A stretch of 64,000 bases of DNA from Escherichia coli (GTDB lineage: Bacteria > Pseudomonadota > Gammaproteobacteria > Enterobacterales > Enterobacteriaceae): NCBI RefSeq assembly GCF_013122565.1, contig NZ_CP053258.1; one strand, given 5' to 3'. The notes under the pieces are model-generated. The model was not told where the DNA came from. It did no database searches and worked only from the letters and a program-made list of their open reading frames with translations. Below, in pieces: positions 40 through 49,873 of this stretch; the stretch's first letter is position 1, and each line of letters begins with the position of its first letter. The position numbers and the translations under genes were made by a program.

Positions 40-140
40 GCCGGATGCGGCGTAAACGCCTTATCCGGCCTACAAAGTATTGCAAATTCAACAAATTGCG
101 AATCCATTGTAGGCCTGATAAGCGTAGCGCATCAGGCACT
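40..140. repeat. BIME: two inverted REP elements upstream of sseB
   Basis: gccggatgcggcgtaaacgccttatccggcctac at about 40-73 and its inverted partner gtaggcctgataagcgtagcgcatcaggcac at about 110-140; typical REP consensus. Confidence 0.7.
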
Positions 141-164
141 TTCGCCCCGAACGTTGAATGAATT

Positions 165-950
165 GTGGTTCTTATGTCCGAAACAAAAAACGAACTTGAA
201 GACCTGCTGGAAAAAGCAGCAACCGAACCGGCTCACCGCCCGGCCTTTTTCCGTACTCTACTGGAATCCACCGTCTGGGTGCCGGGTACGGCGGCGCAGG
301 GCGAGGCAGTAGTTGAAGATAGCGCGCTTGATTTACAGCACTGGGAAAAAGAAGATGGCACCAGCGTCATTCCTTTTTTTACCTCGTTAGAAGCACTTCA
401 ACAGGCGGTTGAAGACGAACAGGCATTTGTCGTAATGCCCGTTCGCACATTGTTTGAGATGACCCTTGGTGAAACGCTCTTCCTTAATGCCAAACTGCCA
501 ACCGGTAAAGAGTTTATGCCGCGTGAAATCAGTTTGTTGATTGGTGAAGAAGGGAGTCCGCTGAGTAGTCAGGAAGTACTGGAAGGCGGTGAATCGCTGA
601 TATTATCGGAAGTCGCAGAGCCGCCAGCACAAATGATTGATTCACTCACCACCTTATTTAAAACCATTAAGCCAGTGAAGCGTGCTTTTATTTGTTCAAT
701 TAAAGAGAACGAAGAGGCACAGCCTAATTTACTTATTGGCATTGAAGCCGATGGTGATATCGAAGAAATTATTCAGGCGGCGGGAAGTGTAGCGACCGAT
801 ACATTACCTGGCGATGAACCAATCGATATTTGTCAGGTGAAAAAAGGGGAAAAAGGAATTAGCCACTTTATTACCGAACATATTGCGCCATTCTATGAAC
901 GTCGCTGGGGTGGTTTTTTGCGTGACTTTAAACAGAATCGGATAATCTAA
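165..950 (+). CDS. sseB: SseB (enhanced serine sensitivity protein)
   Basis: ORF track 261 aa; track start is GTG at 165, an in-frame ATG at 174 (MSETKNE..., 258 aa) is the more likely start; position next to sseA as in E. coli. Confidence 0.9.
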   Translation: MVLMSETKNELEDLLEKAATEPAHRPAFFRTLLESTVWVPGTAAQGEAVVEDSALDLQHWEKEDGTSVIPFFTSLEALQQAVEDEQAFVVMPVRTLFEMTLGETLFLNAKLPTGKEFMPREISLLIGEEGSPLSSQEVLEGGESLILSEVAEPPAQMIDSLTTLFKTIKPVKRAFICSIKENEEAQPNLLIGIEADGDIEEIIQAAGSVATDTLPGDEPIDICQVKKGEKGISHFITEHIAPFYERRWGGFLRDFKQNRII

Positions 951-990
951 AATATGCCGCCCTAAAGGGCGGCATTCTGGCTTACCTGCT
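951..990. terminator. Hairpin directly after sseB stop; T-run is on the - strand side, so likely terminator of ryfA copy 1 and weak terminator for sseB
   Basis: aaaatatgccgccctaaagggcggcat: GC stem with flanking A-run on + and T-run on -; repeated at about 1627-1660 and 2309-2340. Confidence 0.5.
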
Positions 991-1252
991 GTTCTGAAGG
1001 TTGTTAACCACCAGTAAATTGTCGCCGGAGAGACTCCGGTTATTATTTACCTCGGTTAACAGCGCACCAGAAACAATAAGTACGATACAGAAGCACCGTA
1101 TCTTCATTGTGCGGTCCATGCGAAGACCGCATCACGACAGCACCACTGGCGATATTGCCGCGATAGCAAGCGCTGAGACGCGCTTGCTCTAAAGGTCGCG
1201 GAACATCCTTTCCTTAAGCCAGCGCCCGCTTGCGAGACGGCGGAAAGGGCCG
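955..1252 (-). ncRNA. ryfA: ryfA-like transcript copy 1 (mRNA-like RNA carrying a small ORF)
   Basis: Conserved TATTAT -10 candidate on - strand at about 1259-1264; hairpin terminator at about 951-990; ~300 nt, matching the recalled ~304-nt ryfA between sseA and sseB in K-12. Confidence 0.5.
982..1119 (-). CDS. Small hydrophobic protein, 45 aa (MDRTMKIRCFCIVLIVSGALLTEVNNNRSLSGDNLLVVNNLQNSR); candidate TimP-like type I toxin
   Basis: Hand translation of - strand; hydrophobic N-terminal segment; ORF conserved in all three units with synonymous changes; too short for the ORF track. Confidence 0.45.
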   Translation of the reverse strand: MDRTMKIRCFCIVLIVSGALLTEVNNNRSLSGDNLLVVNNLQNSR

Positions 1253-1295
1253 CAGTGGATAATACACTAACAGAACAATAATAACTCTCTTTTGC

Positions 1296-1324
1296 TTGAC
1301 AAAAAGAGAGTTACTGGCGAGTAT
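1296..1324 (+). promoter_or_regulatory. Candidate sigma70 promoter for + strand small RNA, copy 1 (TTGACA-17-GAGTAT)
   Basis: Perfect -35 TTGACA, 17-nt spacer, GAGTAT; same architecture in all three units although the spacer sequence differs in unit 3. Confidence 0.4.
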
Positions 1325-1330
1325 TGTCTC

Positions 1331-1428
1331 CGCTGAGACGCGCTTGCATTACTACGGTAATACAACCTGCTGGAAAGGCCGCGAACCAAACCGGCAACAA
1401 ATAGCCGCCTGATTTTGGCGGTTTTTTG
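1331..1428 (+). ncRNA. Candidate ~100-nt antisense-type sRNA, copy 1 (TimR/RyfB-like antitoxin RNA)
   Basis: Predicted start just after the promoter; 5' 17 nt cgctgagacgcgcttgc identical to 1171-1187 in the ryfA leader; ends at hairpin plus T-run at about 1405-1428. Confidence 0.4.
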
Positions 1429-1430
1429 TT
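1405..1430 (+). terminator. Intrinsic terminator of candidate sRNA copy 1
   Basis: ccgcctgattttggcgg hairpin followed by TTTTTTG. Confidence 0.55.
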
Positions 1431-46965: not shown

Positions 46966-47592
46966 ATGAAGATCGTGGAAGTCAAACACCCACTCGTCAA
47001 ACACAAGCTGGGACTGATGCGTGAGCAAGATATCAGCACCAAGCGCTTTCGCGAACTCGCTTCCGAAGTGGGTAGCCTGCTGACTTACGAAGCGACCGCC
47101 GACCTCGAAACGGAAAAAGTAACTATCGAAGGCTGGAACGGCCCGGTAGAAATCGACCAGATCAAAGGTAAGAAAATTACCGTTGTGCCAATTCTGCGTG
47201 CGGGTCTTGGTATGATGGACGGTGTGCTGGAAAACGTTCCGAGCGCGCGCATCAGCGTTGTCGGTATGTACCGTAATGAAGAAACGCTGGAGCCGGTACC
47301 GTACTTCCAGAAACTGGTTTCTAACATCGATGAGCGTATGGCGCTGATCGTTGACCCAATGCTGGCAACCGGTGGTTCCGTTATCGCGACCATCGACCTG
47401 CTGAAAAAAGCGGGCTGCAGCAGCATCAAAGTTCTGGTGCTGGTAGCTGCGCCAGAAGGTATCGCTGCGCTGGAAAAAGCGCACCCGGACGTCGAACTGT
47501 ATACCGCATCGATTGATCAGGGACTGAACGAGCACGGATACATTATTCCGGGCCTCGGCGATGCCGGTGACAAAATCTTTGGTACGAAATAA
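46966..47592 (+). CDS. upp: Uracil phosphoribosyltransferase
   Basis: 208 aa from ATG at 46966 with AAGGAG SD. Confidence 0.96.
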
Positions 47593-47608
47593 AGAATAAA
47601 AATAATTA

Positions 47609-47638
47609 AAGCCGACTTTAAGAGTCGGCTTTTTTTTG
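47609..47638 (+). terminator. Hairpin plus T-run between upp and uraA (terminator/attenuator)
   Basis: aagccgactttaagagtcggctttttttt. Confidence 0.6.
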
Positions 47639-47677
47639 AGTAAAGCGCCTATAACACATAATACAGAGGATAATACT

Positions 47678-48967
47678 ATGACGCGCCGTGCTATCGGGGT
47701 GAGTGAAAGACCGCCACTTTTACAGACAATCCCGCTTAGTTTGCAACATTTGTTCGCCATGTTTGGTGCAACCGTCCTGGTGCCCGTCTTATTTCATATT
47801 AACCCGGCGACTGTACTGTTATTTAACGGTATTGGAACGCTGCTGTATCTCTTCATCTGTAAAGGGAAAATTCCGGCTTATCTTGGTTCCAGCTTTGCCT
47901 TTATTTCACCGGTATTGTTACTGTTGCCGTTAGGGTATGAAGTCGCGCTGGGCGGCTTTATTATGTGCGGCGTGCTGTTCTGCCTGGTTTCTTTTATCGT
48001 GAAGAAAGCGGGGACCGGCTGGCTGGACGTGCTGTTTCCACCTGCGGCAATGGGCGCAATCGTTGCCGTCATCGGTCTGGAGCTGGCGGGCGTAGCTGCC
48101 GGTATGGCGGGTTTACTCCCGGCTGAAGGGCAAACGCCAGACTCCAAAACCATCATCATCTCTATTACCACCCTGGCGGTCACGGTTTTAGGTTCCGTGC
48201 TGTTTCGTGGTTTCCTGGCAATTATCCCGATTTTAATTGGCGTGCTGGTGGGGTACGCGCTCTCTTTCGCAATGGGAATTGTCGATACCACGCCGATTAT
48301 TAATGCTCACTGGTTTGCGCTGCCAACCCTCTATACGCCGCGCTTCGAGTGGTTTGCCATTCTGACTATTCTGCCAGCGGCGTTAGTGGTTATTGCCGAA
48401 CACGTAGGGCACCTGGTAGTAACGGCTAATATCGTCAAAAAAGATCTGCTGCGCGATCCAGGTCTGCACCGTTCGATGTTTGCTAACGGCCTGTCGACCG
48501 TGATCTCCGGCTTCTTTGGCTCTACGCCAAATACCACTTACGGAGAAAACATTGGCGTGATGGCGATCACCCGTGTTTACAGTACCTGGGTTATCGGCGG
48601 GGCGGCGATTTTCGCTATCCTGCTTTCCTGCGTCGGTAAACTGGCTGCTGCTATCCAGATGATCCCATTGCCGGTGATGGGTGGTGTTTCGCTGCTGCTT
48701 TACGGTGTCATCGGTGCTTCTGGTATTCGTGTGTTGATCGAATCGAAAGTGGATTACAACAAAGCACAGAACCTGATCCTGACTTCCGTGATTTTGATCA
48801 TCGGCGTCAGTGGCGCGAAGGTAAACATCGGCGCGGCGGAGTTGAAAGGTATGGCGCTGGCGACCATCGTCGGTATCGGCTTAAGTTTGATCTTCAAACT
48901 GATCAGTGTGCTGCGCCCTGAAGAAGTGGTGCTGGACGCAGAAGACGCGGATATAACAGACAAATAA
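47678..48967 (+). CDS. uraA: Uracil:proton symporter
   Basis: 429 aa from ATG at 47678 with AGAGGA SD. Confidence 0.95.
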
Positions 48968-49061
48968 TGTACCGACCGGGCAGTGTTGCTGCCCGGTTCA
49001 AACATCATGGGATTCTGTGGTAAACTTCTCGCGATTTTGTGAAATCCTGGTTGAGGTATCT

Positions 49062-49763
49062 CTGAACACACCGGCACAGCTCTCTTTGCCACTTTATCTT
49101 CCTGACGACGAAACCTTTGCAAGTTTCTGGCCGGGGGATAACTCCTCTTTACTGGCCGCGCTGCAAAACGTGCTGCGTCAGGAACATAGCGGTTACATCT
49201 ATCTCTGGGCACGCGAAGGCGCGGGGCGCAGCCATCTGCTGCACGCGGCTTGCGCGGAATTGTCGCAGCGTGGCGATGCGGTGGGCTATGTCCCGCTGGA
49301 TAAACGCACCTGGTTTGTTCCGGAAGTGCTCGACGGTATGGAGCATTTGTCGCTGGTCTGTATCGACAACATTGAGTGTATTGCAGGCGATGAGTTGTGG
49401 GAGATGGCGATTTTCGATCTCTACAATCGAATTCTGGAATCGGGCAAAACACGGTTGTTGATCACCGGCGATCGTCCACCGCGGCAGTTGAATCTGGGAT
49501 TACCGGATCTCGCGTCGCGACTCGACTGGGGGCAGATCTACAAATTGCAGCCACTTTCTGATGAAGATAAGTTGCAGGCGCTACAGTTACGCGCGCGTTT
49601 GCGTGGTTTTGAACTGCCGGAAGATGTGGGGCGTTTCTTGCTGAAGCGGCTCGACAGAGAGATGCGCACGCTATTTATGACGCTGGATCAGTTGGATCGT
49701 GCGTCGATTACCGCGCAACGTAAGCTGACCATTCCGTTTGTGAAAGAAATTCTGAAGTTGTAG
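49062..49763 (+). CDS. hda: DnaA-inactivating protein Hda
   Basis: 233 aa if started at CTG 49062 ([16 protein letters not shown]...); track ORF begins at GTG 49017 (248 aa). Confidence 0.85.
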
Positions 49764-49776
49764 ATAAGGTGTTTAT

Positions 49777-49873
49777 TGTCGGATGCGGCGCGAACGCCTT
49801 ATCCGAACTACGCGAAGTTAATCCATAGTATTCGTAGGCCGGATAAGACGTGGCAAGCGTCGCATCCGGCAAT
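49777..49873. repeat. BIME: two inverted REP elements between hda and yfgD
   Basis: gtcggatgcggcgcgaacgccttatccgaactac and gtaggccggataagacgtggcaagcgtcgcatccggc. Confidence 0.7.

Follow-up and report, generated by a model that had tools for sequence, protein, structure and literature searches.

Repetitive extragenic palindromic (REP) elements, also called palindromic units (PUs), and the bacterial interspersed mosaic elements (BIMEs) that contain them have been catalogued in Escherichia coli since 1984 (Stern 1984; Gilson and Bachellier; Ton-Hoang 2012). A REP is defined as an imperfect palindrome of 30-40 nt with a GTAG tetranucleotide 5′ to the foot of its stem, and REPs are divided into the types y, z1 and z2 (PMC3333891). 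BIME-1 elements combine a z1 with a y unit, occur in single copies and have a conserved long linker, L, which often carries a site for integration host factor (IHF); BIME-2 elements combine z2 and y units over a short linker and are arranged in tandem, and other combinations are regarded as atypical (PMC3333891). The K-12 strain has a total of 584 REPs (PMC3333891), and one y REP, GTAGGACGGATAAGGCGTTTACGCCGCATCCG, has been crystallised (PMC3479197). Here, we analyzed a stretch of 64,000 nucleotides of E. coli DNA (contig NZ_CP053258.1 of assembly GCF_013122565.1; hereafter, the window), for which a first-pass annotation had reported paired inverted REP sequences in three intergenic regions, namely: pepB-sseB (site 1), ratA-xseA (site 2) and hda-yfgD/arsC (site 3). 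The three sites almost certainly consist of genuine copies of the E. coli REP (PU) family arranged as inverted pairs, i.e. BIMEs. As such, they are ordinary, and features of this kind have already been described in the E. coli chromosome.

The window was scanned, with filters off, using a covariance model (R1) that was trained on 32 K-12 REPs, including y, z1, z2 and hybrid units, with the hairpin as the structure. The training REPs were collected from six 50-kb regions of K-12, all of which are unrelated to the window, and the collection was seeded with the crystallised y REP (PMC3479197). R1 gives six significant matches (E < 1e-4), all inside the three sites. A seventh match is the opposite-strand echo of the first (39-73), the next independent match has an E value of 0.61, and all the remaining matches are noise (E ≥ 0.6), i.e. 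there are no further REPs by R1 in the 64 kb. The same model recovers 48 REP copies in 300 kb of K-12 DNA, with scores ranging from 28.7 to 59.6 bits. The five full-length REPs of the window (35.5-59.6 bits) fall inside this range, while a partial copy at site 2 (24 bits) falls below it. A sequence-only hidden Markov model (HMM) made from the same alignment scores these six matches at 20.0-41.8 bits. In 100 dinucleotide-preserving shuffles of the window, the best HMM score per shuffle is 7.1±1.6 on average and 11.8 at most, leaving a gap of at least 8 bits between the six matches and the shuffle noise. REP scanning thus makes a clean split between real copies and noise in this window.

These results agree with most of what the first-pass annotation had proposed. 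The two models are positive at all three sites, whose positions had been given as 40-140, 32158-32233 and 49777-49873 and are right to within a few bases. The formal REP scan that had been named as a check is passed by all three, and the failure to match that had been named as the refuting outcome did not occur. The list of three sites is complete as far as R1 can tell, and the gene context is as claimed, judging from the open reading frames (ORFs), the K-12 annotation and BLAST against K-12. Other routes were less informative. Searches with short IUPAC consensus sequences recover the sites but are poorly specific, and were superseded by the profile models. An iterative nhmmer search starting from a single y REP produced a y-dominated HMM, in which z1 and z2 copies reached just 5-12 bits, and was replaced by the mixed y/z1/z2 alignment. 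Rfam, at its gathering threshold, reports no family at any of the three sites, and none of the seven K-12 stretches that were fetched has any REP annotated in RefSeq.

Five of the six units are full-length REPs, which are imperfect palindromes of 30-38 nt and all of which carry the 5′ GTAG in the R1 alignments. The stems of these five units have an AA/GC internal loop (a bulge in the z1 unit), and their predicted RNA hairpins are stable, with z scores of −3.2 to −4.9. All six units are located between ORFs, except for positions 32230-32233, which overlap the xseA stop codon, and two of the three sites are found between convergent genes. A 1-kb query with site 1 has a median of at least 37 places per E. 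coli genome, among the matches listed, and the query with site 2 has a median of 11 places per genome and up to 26, all over window positions 32162-32236. Because these queries recur at many places per genome, the units belong to a dispersed repeat family. The resemblance to the E. coli REP/PU family extends to length, GTAG, the palindrome with its AA/GC mismatch, location at gene 3′ ends, inverted pairing and copy number. Sites 1 and 3 do not differ from the family in any respect. At site 2, however, one unit is truncated, the other is off the z2 consensus at several stem positions, and the overlap of the full REP with the xseA stop codon makes it not strictly extragenic. There is no evidence against family membership of the five full-length units. 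The coordinates of all units and linkers are listed in Table 1.

Table 1. REP units and linkers at the three sites, with R1 scores and z scores of the predicted hairpins.
Site	Feature	Position	Strand	Sequence	R1 (bits)	E value	Hairpin z	Remark
1	y-type REP	39-73	-	GTAGGCCGGATAAGGCGTTTACGCCGCATCCGGCA	59.6	3.9e-17	−4.9	perfect consensus
1	BIME-1 L linker, 35 nt	74-108	.	TGCAAATTCAACAAATTGC				sequence given is the core
1	z1-type REP	109-138	+	GTAGGCCTGATAAGCGTAGCGCATCAGGCA	47.5	3.7e-13	−3.3	
2	y-type REP remnant	32163-32182	+	ATAAGGCGTTTGCGCCGCAT	24	2e-5		model positions 10-29 only
2	full-length z2-like REP	32197-32233	-	GTAGGCCGAATAAGATGCGTAAGCATCGCATCCGGTA	35.5	3.3e-9	−3.2	
3	y-like REP	49777-49811	-	GTAGTTCGGATAAGGCGTTCGCGCCGCATCCGACA	46.3	9e-13	−4.2	
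3	linker, 22 nt, not the L motif	49812-49833	.					between facing GTAG ends; identical in K-12
3	z2-like REP with y-like foot	49834-49871	+	GTAGGCCGGATAAGACGTGGCAAGCGTCGCATCCGGCA	55	1.2e-15	−4.3	

Site 1 is a textbook BIME-1, in which inverted y and z1 units are joined by a conserved L linker and are present in a single copy. Its y REP begins 7 nt past the pepB stop codon (29-31), has a predicted hairpin of −21.3 kcal/mol, and is the same in sequence as both its K-12 ortholog and the y consensus recovered from K-12. The z1 REP is found 35 nt 5′ of the sseB ATG (174) and is identical to K-12 z1 copies. The L core TGCAAATTCAAYAWATTGC is common to site 1 and to the unlinked K-12 BIME-1 loci dacB-obgE and ubiA-plsB. 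The site as a whole is orthologous and nearly identical in K-12, and of 5426 complete E. coli genomes, 5422 cover a 1-kb query containing it to at least 80%. Within the linker, ATTCAACAAATTG at 86-98 matches the IHF consensus WATCAANNNNTTR in 12 of 13 positions, a pattern that is no commoner in the window than in shuffles (55 matches vs. 50.8 expected). Compared with the BIME-1/RIB/RIP elements of Boccard and Prentki (1993), to the extent that PMC12306157 cites that work, site 1 is alike in its inverted y/z1 units, its 35-nt linker with the L core and its single copy, but its IHF site is putative, with only 12/13 of the consensus.

A 10-nt sequence, CGGCGTAAAC, occurs twice at this locus, at 23-32 over the pepB stop codon and at 48-57 in the loop half of the y REP. 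In the isolate GPT24-01, the 5′ half of the site 1 y unit has been lost. This loss is a deletion between the two copies of CGGCGTAAAC, exactly as recombination between them predicts.

Site 3 is an atypical single pair, made of a y-like unit and a z2-like hybrid whose GTAG ends face each other across 22 nt. The y-like REP begins 13 nt past the hda stop codon (49761-49763), and the z2-like REP is 29 nt from the stop codon of yfgD/arsC (49901-49903). The hybrid type of the latter is also found at two places in the K-12 stretches (local positions 40863-40899 and 37224-37260). Site 3 is 100% identical in K-12, and a 1.7-kb query containing it is at least 80% covered in 5420 of the 5426 complete genomes. 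In strain IMT16316, 32 nt of the y-like unit are missing (window positions 49787-49818), which leaves a single REP. In the interval from the z2-like REP to the yfgD/arsC stop codon, a separate inverted repeat is present at 49872-49899. Its 10-nt arms (ATGTGCTTCA and TGGAGCACAT) are 90% complementary; the repeat lacks a T-run, does not belong to the REPs, and has the same sequence in K-12.

Site 2 is made up of a y remnant and a z2-like REP, and resembles half of a BIME-2 unit. The remnant, which lies 13 nt past the ratA stop codon (32147-32149), keeps the top 20 nt of the y hairpin; its stem foot is disrupted, and ACCA/CCAT is found where GTAG would be expected. An extended 39-nt stretch around it (32154-32192) folds no better than shuffles (z −0.32), and no significant REP match is found at the corresponding position in other island-bearing strains. 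In the upper stem of the z2-like REP, both sides have changed from the z2 consensus in a way that keeps them paired (GACGC/GCGTC to GATGC/GCATC), and the TAG in the GTAG of this REP is the stop codon of xseA (reverse complement of 32230-32232). The two units are joined through their non-GTAG ends, which is the opposite of the arrangement at site 3. The middle pair of the first-pass annotation therefore has one full-length REP, at 32197-32233, as claimed, but its left unit is only a truncated remnant that lacks GTAG. Likewise, the term BIME applies strictly to site 1, as a BIME-1, and loosely to the atypical site 3, and is generous for a REP plus a remnant at site 2.

BIME-2 elements are tandem arrays of y, S and z2, flanked by s/l/r motifs, that bind gyrase. 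Sites 2 and 3 share with them the z2-like units with a longer upper stem of the GACGC...GCGTC type, and at site 2 the units are joined through non-GTAG ends, as they are by the S linker. However, neither site is tandem, unlike the true tandem arrays found in K-12 at gltP-yjcO and fre-fadA, and neither is a BIME-2. The y partner at site 2 is only a remnant; at site 3, the z2-like unit has G instead of T at the position that discriminates y from z, and the GTAG ends face each other. Both sites are better called atypical or degenerate.

Site 2 is present only in strains that have the sinH-sinI-ratA island described below. An orthologous REP is found in 2020N21-246-1 and MS8324 (38.6 bits), and TUM1226 has lost 9 nt of the REP tail. 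MB53, which has the closest island variant (96.6%), has a longer ratA-xseA spacer of 119 bp with a different REP, of the z1 type, in which the GGCCTAC end is kept. The spacer of the window (32150-32233) is found in none of the 5,426 complete E. coli genomes. Comparison of these sequences indicates that REPs have turned over at the ratA-xseA spacer between close island variants.

The gene order of the window is pepB (3′ end), sseB, the ryfA/timP region, sseA, yfhM, pbpC, ndk, rlmN, rodZ, ispG, hisS, yfgM, bamB, der and yfgJ, followed by an 11.7-kb accessory segment and then xseA, guaB, guaA ... hda, yfgD/arsC and bepA. The accessory segment encodes three proteins: an inverse autotransporter of 730 aa (Pfam IAT_beta, 1.9e-107), one of 325 aa that matches nothing in Pfam, and one of 2,684 aa with BIg21 and adhesion domains. 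In its predicted products, it matches the sinH-sinI-ratA (‘ila’) cluster, which has been described in extraintestinal pathogenic E. coli (ExPEC) at xseA..yfgJ and is considered related to Salmonella CS54 (PMC12928451). The insertion site and the three-gene content are the same as in the ExPEC cluster (PMC12928451), but the version in the window shares only 82-87% identity with those common in ExPEC and 96.6% with that of the closest complete genome. The 2,684-aa RatA-like adhesin (24095-32149) is intact in the window; the annotations of MB53 and 2020N21-246-1 give it as a pseudogene, with an internal stop and a frameshift, respectively.

The comparison of the ratA-xseA junction with K-12, which the first-pass annotation had suggested, shows that xseA and yfgJ of K-12 are convergent, with a 4-bp overlap, and that neither a spacer nor a REP lies between them. 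The extra DNA of the window relative to K-12 amounts to ∼11.7 kb, from 20560 to ∼32241. Homology with K-12 resumes at CAC(T/C)TTTTT (∼32242), and XseA is homologous through ...RKKV, after which the protein ends with VTP in the window vs. H in K-12. A REP does therefore stand at the junction of the island with the backbone, as had been proposed, with homology resuming 8 bp from its GTAG end, but the adjoining backbone is itself diverged. Measured per 100 nt, identity to K-12 is 68-96% over the first ∼1 kb of xseA (32242-33300) and 59-76% in yfgJ (20260-20559); der and guaB are 98-100% identical. At the left edge of the island (20559-20750), R1 finds no REP. Because the xseA and yfgJ flanks are diverged from K-12, the variable haplotype extends beyond the 11.7-kb indel, and the REP at site 2 marks the edge of the indel and not the boundary of the variable haplotype. 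This pattern suggests that the island was exchanged together with its flanks by homologous recombination.

Several other explanations for the three sites were considered. Short consensus patterns are weak evidence for REPs (GCCGGATGCGGCG with up to two mismatches has 7 matches vs. 3.4 expected), as would be the case if the matches were chance palindromes in G+C-rich intergenic DNA. This explanation, to which we give no credence, is refuted by the E values of the full-length units (3e-9 to 4e-17) and by the six matches at 20-42 bits, compared to a shuffle maximum of 11.8. The hairpins might also be ordinary Rho-independent terminators of the flanking genes that resemble REPs by coincidence, given that they are stable, G+C-rich and located at gene 3′ ends, with two of the three sites between convergent genes. 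However, T-runs are absent downstream of all the REP stems, and a scan for intrinsic terminators is not above shuffle expectation at the three sites. Furthermore, matches to a multi-copy family at 35-60 bits, with medians of 11 to at least 37 places per genome, are not expected of unique terminators. A terminator origin is thus largely refuted, and we consider it extremely improbable. A promoter scan also gave nothing over shuffle expectation.

A different possibility concerns site 2, where the REP pair (32163-32233) could be the functional end of the sinH-sinI-ratA island or its attachment scar, with the island gained or lost by recombination that takes place at the REP or is catalysed on it, e.g. 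via RayT cleavage or REP-REP recombination. The position of the GTAG end, 8 bp from where K-12 homology resumes, would fit this, as would the absence of both REP and spacer from K-12 at this place and the differences in REP content even among closely related island variants. On the other hand, the left edge has no REP, and therefore there is no flanking repeat pair. The breakpoint at ∼32241/32242 is off the published RayT cleavage position, between CC and TAC, which here falls between 32229 and 32230 (PMC3333891), and the junctions show no microhomology. In addition, orthologs of the REP are found in island variants that share only 82-87% identity, which argues for an old resident of the ratA-xseA spacer and not a recent scar, and the divergence from K-12 beyond the indel on both sides is as expected if homologous recombination in the flanks had replaced the haplotype as a whole. 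The wide divergence of the flanks and the lack of a left-edge REP therefore speak against the REP as an attachment or excision site, and we regard such a role as very unlikely.

Our preferred reading thus remains that the three sites are genuine REP copies in inverted pairs, although some observations limit its reach. Site 3 is outside both canonical BIME classes. The remnant at site 2 is probably inert because it lacks GTAG and the stem foot, which published work shows RayT needs for binding. The scan of the window for the IHF consensus has no discriminating power alone, and the match in site 1 has one mismatch. Finally, the functional roles considered here are inferred from studies of other REP loci.

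In those studies, the L linkers of BIME-1 elements bind IHF, and RayT/TnpA-REP binds single-stranded REPs via GTAG and the stem mismatch, its cleavage sites being CT dinucleotides of the linker and of the inverted partner (PMC3333891). According to the summary of Liang (2015) given in PMC12306157, terminating ribosomes are stalled and translation is lowered by REPs that lie no more than 15 nt from a stop codon. By analogy, the units in the window would be part of the transcripts of pepB, hda, yfgD, ratA and xseA, and would fold as stem-loops in their 3′ untranslated ends. These hairpins may slow 3′-to-5′ exonucleases and in this way stabilise the upstream message. Where a hairpin lies within 15 nt of a stop codon, the terminating ribosome may stall and protein output may be lowered; pepB (7 nt), hda (13 nt) and xseA (overlap) are within this distance, while yfgD (29 nt) is beyond it. 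The L linker of site 1 is of the kind that binds IHF and might do so here. As single-stranded DNA, the REPs are predicted to be substrates of RayT/TnpA-REP, whose gene, rayT, is located outside the window (at 247.6 kb in K-12). Such processing is proposed as the reason for the spread of REPs and for their gain, loss and truncation from strain to strain at these loci.

Near site 1, the window has a tandem triplication of the ryfA/timP small-toxin locus, with copies ∼680 bp apart on the minus strand (949-2613), compared to a single ryfA/timP plus timR in K-12. Rfam matches to ryfA are found at 949-1253, 1627-1931 and 2309-2613, and matches to IS128 RNA at 1385-1595 and 2067-2277. The triplication rests on Rfam and BLAST; Tandem Repeats Finder is silent, the ∼680-bp period being above its 500-bp limit.

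Taken together, the value of these findings goes little beyond correct annotation, with K-12 having identical or nearly identical copies of two of the three sites. Strains differ in their REP content at the three loci, in line with what is known of BIMEs. At site 2, the annotated xseA of the four island-bearing strains examined also ends inside a REP at the same position, in place of which the K-12 gene ends in a TTAA overlap with yfgJ. Since a REP supplies the xseA stop codon in every island strain examined and lies 8 bp from the indel breakpoint, the REP at 32197-32233 might couple XseA output to the presence of the island, by stalling ribosomes at the xseA stop codon, and/or be where most E. 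coli lineages lost the island by deletion. We put this forward only as a speculation with a small chance of being correct. Nevertheless, the location of the xseA stop codon inside a REP in island strains would offer a convenient natural test case for the published proposal that translation is reduced by REPs near stop codons.

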